IMG/VR virus record: IMGVR_UViG_2526164646_000015
Direction: 5' to 3' (one strand)
Origin: a virus
Lineage: Duplodnaviria; Heunggongvirae; Uroviricota; Caudoviricetes
Length of the DNA stretch: 10,322 nucleotides
Made by a program: the position numbers and the translations under genes. Below, piece by piece: positions 1,531 to 10,322 of this stretch (its first letter is position 1; every line of letters begins with the position of its first letter). Below the pieces are notes generated by a model. That model was not told where the DNA came from. It saw only the letters and a program-made list of their open reading frames with translations, and made no database searches.

Positions 1531-2454
1531 CAGGAGTCGCTGAAAAATACGCGTTAATCGAACAATGGCGACAACAATTTCCCATTGAAGCGATGTGTCA
1601 GGTATTTGGTGTATCCAGGAGCGGTTATTACAACTGGGTACAGCATGAACCCTCAGACAGAAAACAAAGTGATGAGCGGCTAAAACTGGAGATTAAGGTG
1701 GCACATATCCGCACTCGCGAAACATATGGAACCCGGCGGCTCCAGACGGAGCTGGCAGAGAATGGCATCATCGTTGGTCGTGACCGACTGGCACGTCTTC
1801 GTAAGGAGCTGAGGCTACGCTGTAAGCAGAAACGCAAGTTCAGAGCAACTACGAACCCGAACCACAATCTGCCAGTTGCGCCAAATCTGCTGAACCAGAC
1901 GTTCGCTCCTACAGCACCAAATCAGGTCTGGGTGGCGGACCTGACGTATGTTGCCACACAGGAGGGATGGTTGTACCTCGCTGGCATCAAAGATGTTTAT
2001 ACGTGCGAAATTGTCGGCTACGCCATGGGAGAGCGCATGACAAAAGAGCTGACAGGTAAAGCCCTGTTTATGGCGCTCAGGAGCCAGCGCCCACCTGCCG
2101 GGCTAATCCACCACTCTGATCGAGGTTCACAGTACTGCGCATACGATTACCGGGTCATACAGGAGCAGTCTGGTCTGAAAACATCAATGTCGCGTAAAGG
2201 TAACTGTTACGACAACGCTCCGATGGAAAGCTTCTGGGGAACGCTGAAAAATGAGAGCCTGAGCCACTATCGTTTTAATAACCGGGATGAAGCCATCTCA
2301 GTAATACGGGAATACATTGAGATTTTCTACAATCGTCAGCGTCGTCACTCTCGTCTGGGGAATATCTCCCCGGCAGCCTTCAGGGAAAAATATCATCAGA
2401 TGGCTGCTTAAAAAAAGAACAAATGGTAGTGTCCGCTATTGCCAGTACACCTCA
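1531..2454 (+). mobile_element. IS600-like (IS3 family) element, 5'-truncated copy lacking about 340 bp including nearly all of orfA
   Basis: 1531-2454 is the reverse complement of the inner 924 bp of the second copy (9123-10046) wherever spot-checked (both junction regions and the orfB start); orfB translations are identical. Homology starts immediately after the IS1 right end and stops at ..GTACACCTCA (2454), a typical IS3-family CA terminus. Confidence 0.85.
1593..2411 (+). CDS. IS600-like orfB transposase (DDE integrase-core domain), IS3 family
   Basis: 272-aa ORF with IS3-family OrfB hallmarks (..WVADLTYV..GWLYLAGIKDVYTCEIVGYAMG..HHSDRGSQYCAYDY..GNCYDNAPMESFWGTLKNE..) and identical to the ORF at 9166..9984 (-). 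orfA, needed for the normal OrfAB frameshift fusion, is missing upstream. Confidence 0.85.
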   Translation: MCQVFGVSRSGYYNWVQHEPSDRKQSDERLKLEIKVAHIRTRETYGTRRLQTELAENGIIVGRDRLARLRKELRLRCKQKRKFRATTNPNHNLPVAPNLLNQTFAPTAPNQVWVADLTYVATQEGWLYLAGIKDVYTCEIVGYAMGERMTKELTGKALFMALRSQRPPAGLIHHSDRGSQYCAYDYRVIQEQSGLKTSMSRKGNCYDNAPMESFWGTLKNESLSHYRFNNRDEAISVIREYIEIFYNRQRRHSRLGNISPAAFREKYHQMAA

Positions 2455-3264: not shown

Positions 3265-3335
3265 ACCAAAGCATGACATCTCTGTTTCGCACCGAAGGTG
3301 ACACTTCTGCTTTGCGTTGACAGGAGAAGCAGGCT

Positions 3336-3491
3336 ATGAAGCAGCAAAAGGCGATGTTAATCGCCCTGATCGTCATCTGTTTAACCGTCATAGTGACGGC
3401 ACTGGTAACGAGGAAAGACCTCTGCGAGGTACGAATCCGAACCGGCCAGACGGAGGTCGCTGTCTTCACAGCTTACGAACCTGAGGAGTAA
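3336..3491 (+). CDS. hokD: HokD (RelF) Hok-family small membrane toxin
   Basis: Not in the ORF track (below length cutoff). ATG at 3336, TAA at 3489-3491; translation MKQQKAMLIALIVICLTVIVTALVTRKDLCEVRIRTGQTEVAVFTAYEPEE (51 aa) matches HokD/RelF of K-12 Qin from memory. Confidence 0.9.
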   Translation: MKQQKAMLIALIVICLTVIVTALVTRKDLCEVRIRTGQTEVAVFTAYEPEE

Positions 3492-3558
3492 GAGACCCGG
3501 CGAGTGAGAAATCCCTCGCCACCTCTGATGTGGCAGGCATCCTCAACGCACCCGCACT

Positions 3559-3590
3559 AAACCCGCTTCGGCGGGTTTTTGTTTTTATTT
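3559..3590 (+). terminator. Rho-independent terminator downstream of relB-relE-hokD
   Basis: AAACCCGC-TTCG-GCGGGTTTTTGTTTTTATTTT: 5-6 bp GC stem, tetraloop, long T tract on the + strand. Confidence 0.7.
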
Positions 3591-3708
3591 TCAACGCATT
3601 TGAAGTTCTGGATGGTGCCGGAATAGAATCAAAAATACTTAAGTAGCGCGCAGGGATAAAAGGGATGGACCCCGAACAGGGGAGTGCTACTTATCTGGAA
3701 GGATTCTG

Positions 3709-3960
3709 ATGATGAACATCGAAGAACTGCGTAAAATTTTTTGTGAAGATGGCCTCTATGCTGTGTGCGTTGAAAATGGAAATATTGTTAGTCATTACCG
3801 CATTGTGTGTTTGCAAAAAAATGGGGCTGCGTTAATTAATTTTGTGGATGCCCGAGTGACGGACGGATTTATCTTGCGCGACGGTGAGTTTGTCACTTCA
3901 TTACAGGCATTGAAAGAGATCGGAATAAAAGCTGGCTTTTCTGCTTTTTCAGAAGAATAA
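3709..3960 (+). CDS. rem: Rem (small Qin-prophage protein of unknown function)
   Basis: 83-aa ORF MMNIEELRKIFCEDGLYAVCVENG.. has the length and position (just after hokD) of K-12 rem and matches my recollection of it; function unknown. Confidence 0.75.
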   Translation: MMNIEELRKIFCEDGLYAVCVENGNIVSHYRIVCLQKNGAALINFVDARVTDGFILRDGEFVTSLQALKEIGIKAGFSAFSEE

Positions 3961-4026
3961 ACTCATCTACAATCTTGCGCGGGGCTGAACTCCCGCTGAG
4001 TAACACCGTGCCACCGGAGAAAACCG

Positions 4027-4227
4027 ATGGCACGCAACGCAAAATATTACAATCATGATAATTCGACCGTTCTTGCCCACACGCACGAGCGGTATTCTCA
4101 CGCATTTAAGTCAGACTGGTACCAGCATCCCTCATGCACTGAAGAACAGGCCGAATGGCTTATTCAGTGTTACCGCAGGCGCGGATGCGAGGTTAAAAAA
4201 GCCCTTAGCCTCGACTACCGTCACTAG
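4027..4227 (+). CDS. Hypothetical small protein (66 aa), Cys/His-containing, unknown function
   Basis: ORF with a well-placed Shine-Dalgarno (CCGGAGAAAACCG-ATG) between rem and ydfU; no family recognised. Confidence 0.45.
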   Translation: MARNAKYYNHDNSTVLAHTHERYSHAFKSDWYQHPSCTEEQAEWLIQCYRRRGCEVKKALSLDYRH

Positions 4228-4306
4228 ATAATCTCCGTCAGGCTCCCTTACTCCGAACAGCCACCGCGTCCGTCCCGCACATTCCAGCAACGGATCTGGA
4301 GGTAAC

Positions 4307-5356
4307 GTGCGGGTATTACTTCGACCTGTTCTGGTTCCGGAACTCGGGCTGGTGGTCCTTAAGCCCGGTCGTGAATCCATGCCGGTATTCCACAATACCC
4401 GGGTACTGGTGGAGCCGGAACCGAAAAGCATGCGTAATCTGCCGTCCGGGGTCGTTCCTGCCGTTCGCCAGCCGCTAGTGGAAGACAAAACATTGCTGCC
4501 GTTTTTCAGTAACGCACGGGTGATTCGTGCTGCTGGTGGTGCTGGCGCATTGTCTGACTGGCTGTTGCGCCATATTAAATCCTGCCAGTGGCCACACGGC
4601 GATTATCATCACAGCGAAACCGTCATTCACCGTTATGGTACCGGCGCAATGGTATTGTGCTGGCACTGCGACAACCAGCTGCGTGACCAGACATCCGAAT
4701 CACTCGAGCAACTTGCTCATCAAAACCTGTCAGCATGGATGATTGACGTCATCGGTCACGCAATAAGCGGTACGCAGGAGCGTGAATTATCTCTAGCTGA
4801 ATTATCCTGGTGGGCGGTCCGCAATCAGGTGGCGGACGCGCTACCGGAAGCGGTATTACGTCGTTCGCTGGGGTTGCGTGCGGAAAAAATCCGCTCAATG
4901 TACCGTGAAAGCGACATCGTACCGGGAGAGCAGACCGCCACCAGCATACTGAAACAGCGCACAAAAAATCTTGCGCCGCTGCCTCACGCCCACCAGCAAC
5001 AGAACCCACAACAGGAAAAGACGGTGGTCAGCATTGCCGTTGATCCTGAGTCTCCGGAATCTTTCATGAAACGACCTAAACGTCGCCGCTGGGTTAACGA
5101 GAAATACAAACGCTGGGTGAAGACACAGCCGTGTGCGTGTTGTGGTAAGCCAGCCGACGATCCCCATCACCTGATTGGTCATGGTCAGGGCGGAATGGGG
5201 ACCAAATCTCACGATATTTTCACGCTACCGCTGTGTCGGGAGCATCACAACGAGCTTCATGCGGATCCTCTGGCGTTCGAAGAAAAGCATGGTTCTCAGG
5301 TTGATTTAATTTTTCGTTTTCTTGATCACGCCTTTGCAACTGGCGTGCTTGGGTAA
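4307..5356 (+). CDS. ydfU: YdfU-like DUF968 prophage protein with C-terminal Cys/His (HNH-like) motif
   Basis: 349-aa ORF, same length as K-12 YdfU; GTG start at 4307 preceded by GGAGGTAAC; C-terminus ..CACCGKPADDPHHLIGHGQGG..LPLCREHHNELH is the Cys/His cluster typical of DUF968 proteins in lambdoid nin regions. Confidence 0.85.
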   Translation: MRVLLRPVLVPELGLVVLKPGRESMPVFHNTRVLVEPEPKSMRNLPSGVVPAVRQPLVEDKTLLPFFSNARVIRAAGGAGALSDWLLRHIKSCQWPHGDYHHSETVIHRYGTGAMVLCWHCDNQLRDQTSESLEQLAHQNLSAWMIDVIGHAISGTQERELSLAELSWWAVRNQVADALPEAVLRRSLGLRAEKIRSMYRESDIVPGEQTATSILKQRTKNLAPLPHAHQQQNPQQEKTVVSIAVDPESPESFMKRPKRRRWVNEKYKRWVKTQPCACCGKPADDPHHLIGHGQGGMGTKSHDIFTLPLCREHHNELHADPLAFEEKHGSQVDLIFRFLDHAFATGVLG

Positions 5357-5368
5357 AAGAGGTGACTG

Positions 5369-5725
5369 ATGCTCATAGATTTGGTTTTACCTTACCCGCC
5401 GACGGTGAACACTTACTGGCGACGCCGTGGCAGCACATATTTTATCTCGGAGGAGGGAAAGCGTTATCGCCGGGCTGTGGCGCTTATTGTTCGCCAGCAG
5501 CGGCTGAAATTAAGCCTGTCCGGAAGGCTGGCGATAAAGGTGATTGCAGAGCCACCGGATAAGCGTCGTCGCGACCTGGACAATATCCTGAAAGCACCGC
5601 TGGATGCGCTGACGCATGCGGGAGTGTTAATGGACGATGAGCAGTTTGATGAAATCAATATCGTTCGTGGTCAGCCAGTATCTGGTGGACGTCTGGGGGT
5701 GAAGATTTACCCCATAATGCATTAA
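5369..5725 (+). CDS. rusA: RusA-family Holliday-junction resolvase
   Basis: 118-aa ORF with AGAGG RBS; motifs PDKRRRDLDN, DALTHAGVLMDDEQ and GGRL align with E. coli RusA (PDRRRRDLDN, DALTKAGFWLDDAQ, GGRL), including the catalytic acidic residues. Confidence 0.85.
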   Translation: MLIDLVLPYPPTVNTYWRRRGSTYFISEEGKRYRRAVALIVRQQRLKLSLSGRLAIKVIAEPPDKRRRDLDNILKAPLDALTHAGVLMDDEQFDEINIVRGQPVSGGRLGVKIYPIMH

Positions 5726-5739
5726 GAGCAGGTCAAAAA

Positions 5740-6561
5740 ATGAAACTGGAAGATTTACCGAAATACTACTCCCCAAAATCCCCTGGCCTGACCGATGCAT
5801 CGGCCTCAACGTCAAAAGATGCGCTGAGTATCACTGATGTGATGGCCGCGCAGGGCATGACACAGAATCGGGCTGAGATGGGTTTTTCTGCGTTCCTGGG
5901 GAAAATGGGCATCAGTATGAATGACAGGGCGCGGGCAACAGAATTACTGGCAGATTATGCACTCAGTCGGTGCGATCGTGTGGCGGCGTTGAGAAAACTT
6001 CCGGCAGAAATAAAACCGGTAGTGATGCGCATTATGGCTTCGTACGCTTTTGAGGATTATGCCCGCAGCGCAGCGAGTAAAAAGCAGTGCCCTTGTTGCT
6101 ATGGGGAAAAATTTATTGAAAGCATAGTTTTTACAAACAAGATCCAGTATCCGGATGGTAAGCCGCCGGTATGGGCAAAGTGTACGAAAGGTGTGTATCC
6201 GTCTTACTGGGAAGAATGGAAAAAAGTCAGGGAGGTGGTAAAAGTTGCCTGTCCGGAGTGTGGCGGAAAGGGTGAGGTTTCCACCGCCTGTAAGGATTGC
6301 CGTGGGCGTGGTGTCGCCATTCATCGTGAAGAGTCGGTAAAACGTGGTATGCCTGTTATCAGAGACTGCCAGCGTTGTGGTGGTCGTGGCTATGAAAGAC
6401 TACCATCAACGGAGGCATTTAATGCTATATGCGAGGTGACAAACCAGATAACACGCGCGTCATGGGAAAAAACAGTTAAGAAATTTTATGATGCGCTGGT
6501 GACCCGGTTTGATATTGAAGAAGCATGGGCTGAGCGGCAGTTAAAAAAGGTAACTAGGTAA
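5740..6561 (+). CDS. Late-gene antiterminator Q-like protein (QuuQ/phage-82 class) with four DnaJ-type CxxCxG(xG) zinc-finger repeats
   Basis: Position (after ydfU/rusA, immediately before a PR'-like promoter, tR'-like terminator and tRNA genes) is that of Q in lambdoid phages; N-terminus MKLEDLPKYYSPKSP resembles what I recall of K-12 QuuQ; repeats CPCCYGEK, CPECGGKG, CKDCRGRG, CQRCGGRG are read directly from the translation. Family assignment is from memory, not a search. Confidence 0.65.
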   Translation: MKLEDLPKYYSPKSPGLTDASASTSKDALSITDVMAAQGMTQNRAEMGFSAFLGKMGISMNDRARATELLADYALSRCDRVAALRKLPAEIKPVVMRIMASYAFEDYARSAASKKQCPCCYGEKFIESIVFTNKIQYPDGKPPVWAKCTKGVYPSYWEEWKKVREVVKVACPECGGKGEVSTACKDCRGRGVAIHREESVKRGMPVIRDCQRCGGRGYERLPSTEAFNAICEVTNQITRASWEKTVKKFYDALVTRFDIEEAWAERQLKKVTR

Positions 6562-6566
6562 CAAGG

Positions 6567-6595
6567 TTGATTTTTCCGGAATCTGTGGTAAATTC
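6567..6595 (+). promoter_or_regulatory. PR'-like late promoter (sigma70 -35 TTGATT, extended -10 TGgTAAATT)
   Basis: TTGATT (6567-6572), 16-nt spacer, TGgTAAATT (6586-6594), 5 bp after the Q stop codon; matches the position of PR' in lambdoid phages. Confidence 0.55.
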
Positions 6596-6642
6596 GTCAT
6601 GATGATGGGCGTTTTATGCCTGGCGTTAGAAGAGTTTCTACA

Positions 6643-6668
6643 ACCCGCCGCTGAGCGGGTTTTTTTAT
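6643..6668 (+). terminator. tR'-like intrinsic terminator (target of Q antitermination)
   Basis: ACCCGC-CGCTGA-GCGGGTTTTTTTATTG: 6-bp GC stem plus T7 tract about 50-70 nt downstream of the PR'-like promoter, giving a short 6S-like leader transcript. Confidence 0.7.
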
Positions 6669-6705
6669 TGCGAAATTAATTACGGACCGTTATTATTCTG
6701 CTCCC

Positions 6706-6781
6706 GGCCCTTTAGCTCAGTGGTGAGAGCGAGCGACTCATAATCGCCAGGTCGCTGGTTCAAATCCAGCAAGGGCCACCA
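6706..6781 (+). tRNA. tRNA-Ile2 (anticodon CAU, lysidine-type, ileX/ileZ-like)
   Basis: 76-nt cloverleaf: acceptor GGCCCTT/AAGGGCC, D arm GCTC..GAGC, anticodon loop CU-CAT-AA, T arm GCTGG-TTCAAAT-CCAGC, terminal ACCA. Close to remembered E. coli ileX, hence Ile2 rather than Met. Confidence 0.85.
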
Positions 6782-6882
6782 TCACAAACCGCCATTAGCT
6801 TATCAGGAAGAGCAGACGACACGATAACAGGGTTGTTGGTGCGGGGGGCGGGTCCCCGATGGCGGTCCATTATCGGTATTCA

Positions 6883-6959
6883 GCGTTGTTAGCTCAGCCG
6901 GACAGAGCAATTGCCTTCTAAGCAATCGGTCACTGGTTCGAATCCAGTACAGCGCGCCA
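6883..6959 (+). tRNA. tRNA-Arg (anticodon UCU, reads AGA; argU/argO-like)
   Basis: 77-nt cloverleaf: acceptor GCGTTGT/ACAGCGC (one G-U), D arm GCTC..GAGC, anticodon stem ATTGC/GCAAT with loop CT-TCT-AA, T arm ACTGG-TTCGAAT-CCAGT, discriminator G, CCA encoded. Confidence 0.85.
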
Positions 6960-7069
6960 TATTCATTCTTCCAGATTCCTTCCGGCAGAGCCTTATACTG
7001 AAATATACCTGGCTCAGGATATTGTTGAAAATATTATATATTTGTCAAAAATAAAAGTTCTGTTAAGTA

Positions 7070-7423
7070 TTGATTGAGTATTTGTTATACGGTCTAATGG
7101 TTTTTTCAGCATTAAGTATTTATCATTCATATGGTGTGGGTAGAGTGAATATTGATGAGGCGTCGGGGTGTTTCATCCTTAGGCAGCGTATTGATATAGT
7201 CAATGCAGCACGAGCAAAGGCCTTCAGCCGTTTGACAGTTTTGTTCTGTACTCCTGATCGTCTTTCGGGAAGAGACGTTATTATTCTGAATAGTGATGCT
7301 ATACAGAGGGTTTGCGATGAGTTCATGGTTGCTAATTCAGAATTATTTGCTCTTGTTCAGGAGTACAACAGAATAGCCAGGACCTGTGGTATGGATGAAC
7401 TTCGGATTACTCATCTGGGGTAG
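7070..7423 (+). CDS. Hypothetical protein (117 aa), hydrophobic N-terminus, unknown function; cargo (moron) ORF
   Basis: ORF from the track; TTG start at 7070 or ATG at 7097, neither with a convincing Shine-Dalgarno. Contains 3 AGA, 3 AGG and 3 AUA codons (6 of 11 Arg, 3 of 11 Ile). No family recognised. Confidence 0.35.
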   Translation: MIEYLLYGLMVFSALSIYHSYGVGRVNIDEASGCFILRQRIDIVNAARAKAFSRLTVLFCTPDRLSGRDVIILNSDAIQRVCDEFMVANSELFALVQEYNRIARTCGMDELRITHLG

Positions 7424-7503
7424 ATACATATCTGGATTATCACCTGTTACGGTAAAAAGTGATTGCTTACTGTTTTTGTTAATGGCATTGCAGCAGCCGG
7501 ATA

Positions 7504-7590
7504 ATGTCAGTGCCGGCTGACGGTGTGCTGGTGGCGGGTGTGGTGGTTGTTGCTTTCCCGTTGCTGAAAAAGAAAACGCCAGACTGTTAG
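7504..7590 (+). CDS. Candidate small hydrophobic peptide (28 aa: MSVPADGVLVAGVVVVAFPLLKKKTPDC), speculative
   Basis: Manually read ORF; ATG lies in the loop of a CAGCCGG..CCGGCTG hairpin; predicted single TM helix followed by KKK. Weak RBS; no homology recognised. Could be a chance ORF. Confidence 0.2.
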   Translation: MSVPADGVLVAGVVVVAFPLLKKKTPDC

Positions 7591-7815
7591 CCGGGTATCA
7601 GTTAGCGGGAGAAATTTTTAAATACTTCACAATTCAGGCGGTTGACTGTTGTCTGGTTTGCGGGGAGTTTGTTAAAAGAAACTGGCATGGTGAATCCCCC
7701 TGTGCGGAGGGGCAATCAGCGAGTAGGTATATGGGATAATCGCGGATTCAGGTGCTGGTACTGAATTCACCGGGAGGCACCCGGCACCATGGAATGGCAC
7801 ATAGCGCCACTCTCC

Positions 7816-7850
7816 AGCCCCTCTCCGGAGGGGCTGTTTATATTGATTTT
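7816..7850 (+). terminator. Intrinsic terminator (perfect 8-bp stem AGCCCCTC-TCCG-GAGGGGCT plus T-rich tail)
   Basis: Perfect palindrome 7816-7835 followed by GTTTATATTGATTTT; lies between the convergent + strand cargo ORFs and the stop codon (7871) of the - strand ORF. Confidence 0.6.
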
Positions 7851-7870
7851 GTCAGATGTGAGTAAACTCC

Positions 7871-8206
7871 TTATGGACTTTGTTGTTTTAGTCCATAAGG
7901 ACATATTTGCAGAGTGCAACGGTTATTAAAGCATTCATTCAATACGTTATCTGTATTTGTAGGGCATTCCTGGCTGTTTTTGATTAAATTCCAGAATGTT
8001 TTATTGAATGGTACTACGTTGTAAATGGTTACAGGTAGCACTTTGTTATTGAGCATGATGCCTGTGTGAGTCAGTGTAAATATACTTTCAGGAGGTAAGA
8101 AAGCATCCGATTGATACCAGATTATTAATTTTATTTTACTCCATATGACTGAAAAAGATATTCCGCATGATGGCTGGATAACTGTATCAATCACAATCCA
8201 CTTCAT
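7871..8206 (-). CDS. Hypothetical protein (111 aa), Trp/Cys-rich, unknown function; cargo (moron) ORF
   Basis: ATG at 8206 preceded on the - strand by AAGGA at 7-nt spacing; a TATACT -10-like element lies further upstream in very AT-rich DNA. No family recognised. Confidence 0.4.
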
Positions 8207-8450
8207 TTAGTTTCCTTGTTTATGCCTTGCTGGTGATGTTCTGAAAAGTATAAATGATATTTTTGAATTAAACCATAGAGCAGAATTATTTTTCTGATGT
8301 TGTTTATTGTTTATTTAAATGCAGGGTGGTTTATATCTCGTCTTGTAGTTTATCCATGCATATCTGCTTGATAATCAGGTTTTTATTTAAGGTATGGTTT
8401 TGTGTTTTTTCTGTATTACATGTCAGGTATTTTAAAGAATTATTTTTCAG

Positions 8451-8654
8451 ATGTTGGAAAGAACCATGGCATTTAAACACTATGATGTTGTCAGGGCGGC
8501 GCCGCCGTCAGATCTTGCGGAAAAGCTGACACATAAACTGAAAGAGGGCTGGCAGCCGTTTGGTAGTCCGGTGGCCATAACCCCTTATACCCTGATGCAG
8601 GCGATTGCAGCAGAAGGTGATGTGGTGGTCAGTGGTGCAACTGAGCCGGAGTGA
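8451..8654 (+). CDS. Small conserved-looking prophage protein (62-67 aa), unknown function; possibly DUF1737-like
   Basis: ORF MLERTMAFKHYDVVRAAPPSDLAEKLTHKLKEGWQPFGSPV..; the more likely start is ATG 8466 (MAFKHYDVV). The YDVV..LAEK..LKEGWQP.G pattern resembles small phage proteins I recall near lysis cassettes, but I cannot confirm the family without a search. Confidence 0.5.
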   Translation: MLERTMAFKHYDVVRAAPPSDLAEKLTHKLKEGWQPFGSPVAITPYTLMQAIAAEGDVVVSGATEPE

Positions 8655-8897
8655 TACTACGTCATCGTACTGGCCCGGCATTCCAGGCCATAAAAGACAG
8701 TCTGGCAGTGGGACTAAATGCACTGACGCTGACGGATATTACCAAAAATGCAACGTATGGCGTTGAGATAGAAAGTCTGGTGCTGGAGATAAATGCACCG
8801 GCATCATCATAAAAAGTGAGCCAGTCAAATGGAAGGTATCGTTAAACTCACCGGTAGTGTCAGTGGGTCGTCTGAGACGCTTGCATGAGTTATCAGA

Positions 8898-8928
8898 GCC
8901 ATCAGTAGTTAACTGGTGGCTTTTTTAT
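8898..8928 (+). terminator. Intrinsic terminator immediately upstream of the holin start
   Basis: GCCATCAG-TAGTTAA-CTGGTGGC (8-bp stem, one G-U) followed by TTTTTTATTGTTG; ends about 35 nt before the holin ATG. Confidence 0.6.
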
Positions 8929-8961
8929 TGTTGTCAGCTTCCGGATAACGGGAGACGGGGT

Positions 8962-9122
8962 ATGGACCAGATGGAAAAAATCACAACAGGTGTGTCATAC
9001 ACCACGTCAGCGGTGGGAACGGGCTACTGGTTCCTGCAGTTGCTGGACAGGGTTTCCCCGTCTCAGTGGGCGGCAATAGGCGTGCTGGGGAGTCTGCTGT
9101 TTGGGCTGCTGACATATCTGAC
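8962..9122 (+). pseudogene. Phage-21-type pinholin (S21-like class II holin) gene, 3' end removed by IS600 insertion
   Basis: ATG at 8962 with GGAG RBS; [54 protein letters not shown] aligns with remembered phage 21 S ([60 protein letters not shown]..). The frame enters IS600 at 9123 and the last 6 codons (EVYWQ*) are IS-encoded, so the charged C-terminal tail is lost. The tracked ORF start at 8857 is an upstream in-frame extension, not the real start. Confidence 0.75.
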
Positions 9123-9165
9123 TGAGGTGTACTGGCAATAGCGGACACTACCATTTGTTCTTTTT

Positions 9166-9984
9166 TTAAGCAGCCATCTGATGATATTTTTCCCTGAAGG
9201 CTGCCGGGGAGATATTCCCCAGACGAGAGTGACGACGCTGACGATTGTAGAAAATCTCAATGTATTCCCGTATTACTGAGATGGCTTCATCCCGGTTATT
9301 AAAACGATAGTGGCTCAGGCTCTCATTTTTCAGCGTTCCCCAGAAGCTTTCCATCGGAGCGTTGTCGTAACAGTTACCTTTACGCGACATTGATGTTTTC
9401 AGACCAGACTGCTCCTGTATGACCCGGTAATCGTATGCGCAGTACTGTGAACCTCGATCAGAGTGGTGGATTAGCCCGGCAGGTGGGCGCTGGCTCCTGA
9501 GCGCCATAAACAGGGCTTTACCTGTCAGCTCTTTTGTCATGCGCTCTCCCATGGCGTAGCCGACAATTTCGCACGTATAAACATCTTTGATGCCAGCGAG
9601 GTACAACCATCCCTCCTGTGTGGCAACATACGTCAGGTCCGCCACCCAGACCTGATTTGGTGCTGTAGGAGCGAACGTCTGGTTCAGCAGATTTGGCGCA
9701 ACTGGCAGATTGTGGTTCGGGTTCGTAGTCGCTCTGAACTTGCGTTTCTGCTTACAGCGTAGCCTCAGCTCCTTACGAAGACGTGCCAGTCGGTCACGAC
9801 CAACGATGATGCCATTCTCTGCCAGCTCCGTCTGGAGCCGCCGGGTTCCATATGTTTCGCGAGTGCGGATATGTGCCACCTTAATCTCCAGTTTTAGCCG
9901 CTCATCACTTTGTTTTCTGTCTGAGGGTTCATGCTGTACCCAGTTGTAATAACCGCTCCTGGATACACCAAATACCTGACACAT
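9166..9984 (-). CDS. IS600-like orfB transposase (DDE), IS3 family
   Basis: 272-aa ORF identical in translation to 1593..2411 (+). Confidence 0.9.
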   Translation of the reverse strand: MCQVFGVSRSGYYNWVQHEPSDRKQSDERLKLEIKVAHIRTRETYGTRRLQTELAENGIIVGRDRLARLRKELRLRCKQKRKFRATTNPNHNLPVAPNLLNQTFAPTAPNQVWVADLTYVATQEGWLYLAGIKDVYTCEIVGYAMGERMTKELTGKALFMALRSQRPPAGLIHHSDRGSQYCAYDYRVIQEQSGLKTSMSRKGNCYDNAPMESFWGTLKNESLSHYRFNNRDEAISVIREYIEIFYNRQRRHSRLGNISPAAFREKYHQMAA

Positions 9985-10019
9985 CGCTTCAATGGGAAAT
10001 TGTTGTCGCCATTGTTCGA

Positions 10020-10322
10020 TTAACGCGTATTTTTCAGCGACTCCTGTGCAAAATACGCTGTTGCTTTTTTTAATATATCTCGCTCAAGGCGAGCTTCATT
10101 TAACGCCTTACGCAGTTGCAGAATTTCAGATTCCAGTTCAGCCACCGTGCGGGAACCAGGAGTACCGAGCCCTTTTCTGGCGGCGGTAACCCATTGTCCT
10201 AAAGTGCCTTCAGGAAGAGATAATCGGGAAGCGCCTTCACTGATCGAAAGTTGATTTTCAAGAACCGTTCTGACAGCTTCGGCTTTGAACTCTTTAGAGT
10301 AACGTTGGGTTTTTCTGCTCAT
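10020..10322 (-). CDS. IS600-like orfA (HTH DNA-binding component of the OrfAB transposase)
   Basis: 100-aa ORF MSRKTQRYSKEFKAEAVRTVLENQLSISEGASRLSLPEGTLGQWV..ILKKATAYFAQESL has the IS3-family OrfA layout (HTH followed by leucine-zipper-like segment ending ..KKATAYFA); overlaps the orfB frame as expected for programmed -1 frameshifting. Confidence 0.9.
   Translation of the reverse strand: MSRKTQRYSKEFKAEAVRTVLENQLSISEGASRLSLPEGTLGQWVTAARKGLGTPGSRTVAELESEILQLRKALNEARLERDILKKATAYFAQESLKNTR

Follow-up and report, generated by a model that had tools for sequence, protein, structure and literature searches.

Transfer RNA genes are common downstream of the antiterminator gene Q in lambdoid phages, as in SfI, Sf6, ST64T and p21 (PMC3636060), and the copy number of argO correlates genome-wide with the use of AGA in laterally acquired genes (McDonald et al., 2015; PMC4539685). 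The locus described here resembles these systems in that its tRNAs are predicted to read codons seldom used by the host and favoured in phage and foreign genes, and in that they occupy the same slot after Q. The published studies, however, describe a match of tRNAs and codons across a whole genome or a whole phage; a specific pairing of a tRNA with one adjacent gene is not among their findings, and no such pairing is supported at this locus.

Among individual phages, a close counterpart is the Stx2a phage Stx2_EH2201 (LC567829.1), in which Q is followed by a small ORF, a DNA methylase gene, tRNA(CAU), tRNA-Arg(UCG), tRNA-Arg(UCU), stx2A, stx2B and, on the minus strand, iraM. A search for ileZ, argN and argO in a library of papers returned nothing on the tRNAs of Stx phages, for which the classical references are Schmidt (1997) and Plunkett (1999). 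Also close are some 1180 chromosomal prophages of E. coli and the phage mEp460_ev081 (LR597641.1), which are 98.5–99.4% identical to our locus over the end of Q, the tRNAs, the ORF that follows them and a DUF3927 gene (98.5% over the 1141-bp stretch for mEp460_ev081 itself). Their copies lie within fuller prophages that have lysis and structural genes, whereas the copy studied here sits in a remnant bracketed by insertion sequences and differs from them by a nonsense mutation in DUF3927.

A preliminary description of this locus held that tRNAs for rare isoleucine and arginine codons lie directly upstream of a 117-residue cargo ORF enriched in those codons, as upstream of stx in Stx phages, and took this to argue that the ORF is translated and that its acquisition or selection went hand in hand with that of the tRNAs. 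We asked how far each element of this account holds.

Results

The locus lies in the late region of a defective prophage

The window is the whole stretch of DNA analysed, 10,322 nucleotides of IMG/VR record IMGVR_UViG_2526164646_000015. Many E. coli chromosomes have prophage segments that are ~98% identical to positions 3322–9123. In the window this piece is flanked by an IS1 and by an IS3-family element present in two inverted copies. It is a defective lambda-like remnant that carries the "cargo" segment between Q and lysis, with the following features:

4307–5356, DUF968 gene
5369–5725, RusA
5740–6561, plus strand, Q late-gene antiterminator, 273 aa (ORF list and annotation of relatives)
6568–6596, plus strand, pR'-like late promoter just 3' of Q, TTGATT, 17 nt, TGgTAAATT (read from the sequence)
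6642–6668, plus strand, tR'-like intrinsic terminator, 7-bp GC-rich stem and T run (terminator scan)
6668–6696, plus strand, promoter-like site TTGCGA-17-TATTAT (consensus scan, 9/12)
6706–6781, plus strand, predicted tRNA-Ile2, anticodon CAU, ileZ type (ARAGORN; Rfam, 72.5 bits)
6789–6869, plus strand, decayed tRNA-Arg(UCG), argN pseudogene (alignment to argN)
6883–6959, plus strand, predicted tRNA-Arg, anticodon UCU, argO type (ARAGORN; Rfam, 68 bits)
7070–7423, plus strand, longer frame of the ORF, 117 aa, TTG start
7145–7423, plus strand, predicted conserved coding sequence of the same ORF (ORF92), 92 aa, GTG start, phrog_2873 (homology, dN/dS, AlphaFold2)
7459–7590, plus strand, small DUF3927 gene, disrupted here (annotated in locus L001; alignment and translation)
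7656–7845, plus strand, STnc100-family sRNA with its own terminator at 7815–7836 (Rfam RF02076; terminator scan)
7871–8206, minus strand, iraM, anti-adapter protein, convergent to the late transcript (NCBIfam PRK09919, 162 bits; PGAP)

Near-identical genomes list the product of the Q gene as "antitermination protein"; in mEp460_ev081 its annotation is phage antitermination protein Q. The pR'-like site scores below the 9/12 threshold of the consensus promoter scan, and its tentative assignment as pR' follows from its location between Q and the terminator. Together, the pR'-like promoter and the tR'-like terminator delimit a short leader transcript. Positions 6594–6665 also give a weak, sub-threshold isrK-like match in Rfam (E = 0.28).

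The tRNA module resembles that of Stx2a phages

Both tRNAs of the preliminary description are found by ARAGORN and Rfam. The tRNA with anticodon CAU is identical at 68 of 76 positions to ileX, the lysidine-dependent tRNA-Ile2 of E. coli K-12, and at all 76 to ileZ of the Stx2a phage; in near-identical genomes its PGAP annotation is tRNA-Ile. Its acceptor stem has the pairs C4-G69 and C5-G68, which we take to be determinants for TilS. These features identify it as a predicted tRNA of the lysidine-bearing Ile2 type rather than a methionine tRNA. The tRNA with anticodon UCU matches argO of the Stx2a phage at 76 of 77 positions and K-12 argU at only 57 of 77 (74%), which fits the identity of 75% reported for argO and argU (PMC4539685).

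Between the two lies a 101-nt spacer, and only its two ends can be aligned with argN, whether that of the Stx2a phage or that of locus L011. The remnant at 6789–6869 keeps the acceptor, the D-arm and the 3' end, with the anticodon arm scrambled. As a live tRNA the spacer is ruled out: neither ARAGORN nor Rfam at E <= 1 finds a tRNA there, and the predicted fold is without an anticodon loop. The cluster thus consists of ileZ, a decayed argN and argO.

The module also appears to carry a promoter-like site of its own at 6668–6696. The block with this site is kept upstream of ileZ in four differing upstream contexts (the window and three others), and beyond the block the sequence is unrelated in the three other contexts. 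Conservation of the block across all four suggests that the module may bring its own promoter with it.

Comparison with Stx2_EH2201 extends this likeness to the flanks. Homology spans 6666–6967 and resumes at 7627–8623; between these blocks, 659 bp here, holding the ORF and DUF3927, replaces 1368 bp with stx2AB in the Stx2a phage. Shared features include the same 40-nt block upstream of ileZ, a module that is the same by descent, and the same slot downstream of Q and upstream of cargo, followed by an STnc100-like region and a convergent iraM. The two differ in that the Stx2a phage has a tRNA-Arg(UCG) where argN is decayed here, that the module follows a DNA methylase gene there and the tR'-like terminator directly here, and that the cargo is stx2AB there and the 92-aa gene with a broken DUF3927 here. 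The resemblance proposed in the preliminary description thus holds well, and it is true positional homology, by descent.

The ORF is a conserved gene of probably 92 codons

The 117-aa ORF has a full-length match to phrog_2873 (residues 10–117 to profile positions 1–108 of 108, E = 2e-69), a family with a weak link to phrog_4827. Its homologues form three types, with protein identities of 57–63% and DNA identities of ~72–76%. Despite this ~28% DNA divergence, the types align over 92 codons without indels and end at a common stop codon. Each of the three pairwise comparisons between types gives a dN/dS of ~0.26, third-position differences make up 39–43 of 77–89 differences, and no frame but the sense frame is open in every type. 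When 1.8 billion representative proteins are searched with a profile, a small family of 21 representatives emerges, whose distant members, at 91–106 aa and 21–40% identity, have a common motif, ATG starts and a purine-rich Shine-Dalgarno-like sequence just upstream; one of them likewise lies downstream of a Q gene. By this record of conservation, ORF92 appears to be a genuine moron-type gene under purifying selection.

AlphaFold2 predicts a confident two-helix hairpin (mean pLDDT 84.7). A Foldseek search of the PDB gave no match at E <= 0.001 and generic helical hairpins only, so that no function can be inferred from the fold. Pfam gave no credible match, only RHIM at E = 0.09, which fails the cutoff, and tblastn against GenBank phages returned mEp460_ev081 as the only record.

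The antisense ORF at 7123–7326 (67 aa) was also considered and rejected as a shadow frame: its dN/dS of 0.21 arises from shared wobble positions, and the frame has two stops in types 1 and 2.

A number of clues bear on where the protein starts. The type-3 homologue, which PGAP does annotate at 92 aa, begins behind an AGGAG site and has a stop in the same frame just upstream; one type-2 locus likewise carries an in-frame stop just upstream of the GTG; and the putative N-terminal extension differs by 7 nt in length in another type-2 locus, L009. From the upstream stops, the 7-nt shift and the PGAP start of type 3, the 117-aa frame would be over-extended, and the stretch from 7070 or 7097 to 7144 was rejected from the conserved protein. 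A start at ATG 7097 would yield a protein of 108 aa, and the 108-aa phrog_2873 model begins at the equivalent of this ATG, whereas our comparison across types favours the shorter protein. The type-1 start is without a good Shine-Dalgarno sequence, and the 117-aa TTG frame is without a clear one. Taken together, these observations indicate that the conserved protein probably starts at GTG 7145 and is 92 aa long. As a real gene the ORF is thus borne out by dN/dS and family conservation; its extent of 117 aa is not. The claim that it follows the tRNAs directly needs a similar correction: the ORF is indeed downstream of them, across a gap from tRNA-Arg of 110 nt to TTG 7070 and of 185 nt to the conserved GTG 7145.

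PGAP leaves the ORF unannotated in all 36 near-identical type-1 E. coli genomes sampled and in L001.

The rare codons of the ORF follow base composition

The codon counts given in the preliminary description are exact. The 117-codon ORF (GC 41%) has 11 arginine codons (AGA 3, AGG 3, CGT 3, CGA 1, CGG 1) and 11 isoleucine codons (ATA 3, ATT 7, ATC 1). Its AGA/AGG/ATA density of 7.6 per 100, or 8.7 per 100 (8/92) in ORF92, compares with 0.58 per 100 in a seven-gene sample of K-12, so that enrichment over host genes is real; the intact related phage mEp460_ev081 has 242 such codons in 12,628, or 1.9 per 100.

Against the composition of the ORF itself, the picture is different. Mononucleotide shuffles give 6.0 ± 2.2 rare codons against the 9 observed (P = 0.13); AGR makes up 0.55 of arginine codons where composition predicts 0.44, and ATA 0.27 of isoleucine codons where it predicts 0.32. 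The density of 7.6 per 100 lies within the 2.7–8.8 per 100 found in six frames of flanking non-coding DNA and is thus no higher than in AT-rich DNA that encodes nothing, the finding that the preliminary description itself had named as counting against it. The AraC-like, TolA-like, TfpB and IraM genes, which are AT-rich cargo not immediately after the tRNAs, have similar densities, at 5.1–6.5 rare codons per 100. At the homologous slot in the Stx2a phage, stx2A has a density similar to that of the ORF (7.2 per 100) and the adjoining stx2B has 0. The rare codons of the ORF are probably a by-product of base composition.

Moreover, their positions are hardly conserved. The three types have 8, 3 and 5 rare codons; of the 12 alignment columns with a rare codon, only two are common to two types and none to all three. 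Conserved arginine positions use CGT or CGA, and opposite the majority of AGR codons the other types have Lys, Gln, Asn, Gly or Ser. This looks like the pattern expected from drift at variable sites in AT-rich DNA. Since the codon load equals composition and the positions are not conserved, the rare codons are no evidence for translation or for co-selection, and the argument for translation drawn from them is not supported.

By two comparisons ORF92 nonetheless stands somewhat high. Its density is the highest of any mEp460_ev081 gene, at 8.7 against 4.3 per 100 in other AT-rich accessory genes (P = 0.04, uncorrected, among ~50 genes), and its 8 rare codons exceed the 3, 5, 3 and 6 of homologues (Fisher P = 0.10). 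This excess is suggestive at most; with ORF92 at the top of the phage and above its homologues, there may be a modest relaxation of codon choice beside the tRNAs. As a share of demand, the ORF supplies 9 of the 242 AGA/AGG/ATA codons of mEp460_ev081 (<4%), and the integrase, the tape measure gene, J and a 449-aa cargo gene each have more rare codons than it does. Locally, AGA-ATA-GCC-AGG forms a codon cluster at 7370–7381.

The tRNA module and ORF92 are distributed differently

Of 5,426 complete E. coli genomes, 1180 have the 1141-bp stretch comprising the end of Q, the tRNAs, the ORF and DUF3927 at a coverage of at least 80%. Counts for the tRNA module are 7597 places and 3061 genomes, and for the ORF 1486 places and 1314 genomes, so that the module is found at ~5 times more places than the ORF, with many different cargoes. 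Type-1 ORFs are contiguous with the tRNAs in about 1180 of ~1185 genomes. Sampled type-1 copies are at least 98.3% identical, with too few substitutions for an analysis of polymorphism; because these copies form a block at least 98% identical, their near-perfect linkage counts as a single event in one lineage.

Other homologues give a different view. Type-2 homologues sit after an AraC-type gene; they are in loci without a tRNA or follow ileZ-argN, whose Arg tRNA is UCG and not UCU, at a distance of 2.2 kb. The type-3 locus has no tRNA. Of two distant homologues, the one after a Q gene has a tRNA-Thr(UGU) 650 nt upstream and the other has no tRNA nearby. The linkage of tRNAs and ORF, whose conservation in relatives had been put forward as a check, is thus not conserved across homologues.

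Discussion

We favour, at a probability of about 0.78, a reading in which a widespread tRNA module and a real gene, ORF92, stand together in the stx slot, the rare codons of the gene would derive from AT-rich composition, and the tRNAs would serve a general demand. The ileZ-argN-argO module, its argN decayed, lies 3' of Q, the late promoter and the terminator. Late transcription that Q carries past tR' would produce its tRNAs, which probably have a promoter of their own as well. A 659-bp cassette of the 92-aa gene and the broken DUF3927 fills the slot that Stx phages use for stx2AB. ORF92 would owe its wealth of AGA, AGG and ATA to being AT-rich foreign DNA, where codons rare in the host are only weakly selected against. 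Most likely the tRNAs serve the needs of the phage as a whole and of acquired genes, supplementing the scarce tRNA-Ile2 and tRNA-Arg(UCU) of the host; ORF92 would benefit from them like any AT-rich cargo gene and would not be the reason for their presence. This general-demand reading agrees with the correlations of McDonald et al. (PMC4539685) and with the tRNA-after-Q pattern (PMC3636060).

The closest rival is the one implied by the preliminary description: that tRNAs and ORF have been selected as one unit, in which the tRNAs are kept beside this cargo specifically for its translation, as has been proposed for stx. Its appeal lies in the density of the ORF, the highest in the related phage at ~2 times that of other AT-rich accessory genes (though the P of 0.04 is uncorrected) and similar to that of stx2A in the homologous slot, and in the nearly constant adjacency of type-1 copies to the tRNAs. 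That adjacency, however, traces to the single nearly identical block, and stx2B, next to stx2A, has none of the codons in question. The codon load is what composition predicts and falls in the range of non-coding frames; no rare-codon column is common to all three types and only two of 12 to two of them; homologues of types 2 and 3 experience the same purifying selection at a distance of 2.2 kb from tRNAs or at loci without any; and the module is at ~5 times more places, with many cargoes. With under 4% of the phage's rare codons in the ORF as well, we regard joint acquisition or selection of tRNAs and cargo as unlikely. A more sceptical view would make the ORF no gene at all: a frame left open by chance in AT-rich DNA between genes, or else the shadow of a feature on the opposite strand. 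The silence of PGAP in the 36 sampled type-1 genomes and L001, the TTG start of the 117-aa frame without a clear Shine-Dalgarno sequence, codon usage indistinguishable from random, and a similarly low dN/dS (0.21) in the wobble-sharing antisense frame are all consistent with it. We nevertheless judge it very improbable: no frame other than the sense frame stays open in every type, and the antisense one is interrupted twice in types 1 and 2; 92 codons are retained without indels and to the same stop at ~28% DNA divergence; distant homologues, equal in length, begin with ATG and have Shine-Dalgarno-like sequences just upstream; PGAP annotates the type-3 homologue; and the AlphaFold2 model is confident.

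One further proposal keeps ORF92 as a gene and gives its codons a regulatory part, such that it would be poorly translated in the lysogen until late transcription raises the ileZ and argO tRNAs, which would link its production to induction. In its favour, tRNAs and ORF, both placed downstream of tR', are predicted to share one Q-dependent late transcript, and rare codons cluster locally at 7370–7381. Against this, the promoter-like site conserved with the module suggests expression of the tRNAs independent of Q, the host already has ileX and argU, and the rare codons are not conserved in homologues; we think gating of this kind highly doubtful. The fuller version, in which ORF92 is an overlooked helical-hairpin protein whose translation depends on the adjacent tRNAs and is tied to induction (a codon-gated moron), strikes us as very unlikely. 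By the general-demand reading, the arrangement itself is ordinary, since a tRNA module next to cargo in a lambdoid late region is already known.

What is new here is small: a conserved 92-aa gene is left unannotated by RefSeq in every type-1 copy sampled. The resulting annotation gap concerns ORF92 in the stx slot in ~1,300 of 5,426 complete E. coli genomes, about a quarter. There is also a lesson for the reading of such loci, namely that many host-rare codons next to phage tRNAs are evidence for neither translation nor co-selection unless they exceed compositional expectation. Beyond such housekeeping the importance of the locus is little.

Features downstream of ORF92

By pairwise alignment and translation, the DUF3927 gene has a nonsense change at 7480 (GAA to TAA); its counterpart in L001 is annotated "DUF3927 family protein". 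The STnc100 match that follows scores 124.2 bits against a gathering score of 47 and covers positions 1–206 of the 206 in the model.

The tRNA module and its upstream flank

6568-6668, short transcript unit with a pR'-like promoter and the tR' terminator, directly after the antiterminator gene Q
6668-6696, promoter-like TTGCGA-17-TATTAT, upstream of ileZ
6789-6869, decayed tRNA-Arg(UCG) (argN), within the 101-nt spacer separating the two tRNAs

Comparison with the argN of Stx phages revealed the nature of the spacer between ileZ and argO: it is a decayed argN, still matching in the acceptor, the D-arm and at the 3' end, whereas the anticodon arm is scrambled or replaced. Some related genomes (e.g. 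H124) carry a PGAP 'tRNA-OTHER' call within the matched tRNA region. From the promoter-like site, transcription would start 2-3 nt before ileZ; four loci share this site together with the tRNA module, although their sequences farther upstream are unrelated. The unit after Q, whose transcript may be a StxS/6S-like leader RNA, weakly resembles isrK, an sRNA of Salmonella prophages, at a score below threshold (E = 0.28), and its Trp-leader match is at chance level.

Genes downstream of ORF92

7459-7590, DUF3927 small gene, nonsense change at 7480
7656-7845, STnc100 sRNA (Rfam family), full-length strong match (124 bits)
7871-8206, minus strand, iraM, 34.5% GC

Codon 8 of the DUF3927 gene is changed from GAA to TAA in the window; the gene is intact in near-identical E. 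coli prophages. STnc100, closed at its end by its own terminator, separates the cargo cassette from iraM, which is convergent, and in an Stx2a phage the same block comes after stx2B (homology 7627-8623). iraM is a further AT-rich cargo gene drawing on tRNA-Ile2: ATA makes up 6 of its 13 Ile codons, and it has only one Arg codon. Its transcription opposes that of the late operon.

Insertion sequences

756-1538, IS1 copy
1526-2461 and 9116-10051, IS3-family element, two 936-nt inverted copies
1593-2411 (plus strand) and 9166-9984 (minus strand), IS3-family transposase ORFs, 272 aa each

The IS1 copy and the two IS3-family copies, which are 99% complementary, bracket the prophage fragment. No E. 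coli genome covers at least 80% of the window. With so many IS elements, the host is suggested to be Shigella-like or rich in IS elements for some other reason. At several loci with type-2 ORF92 homologues (L003-L008), an IS3-family insertion lies immediately upstream of the homologue, thus creating a chimeric 119-aa ORF (P0017) with a foreign N-terminus.
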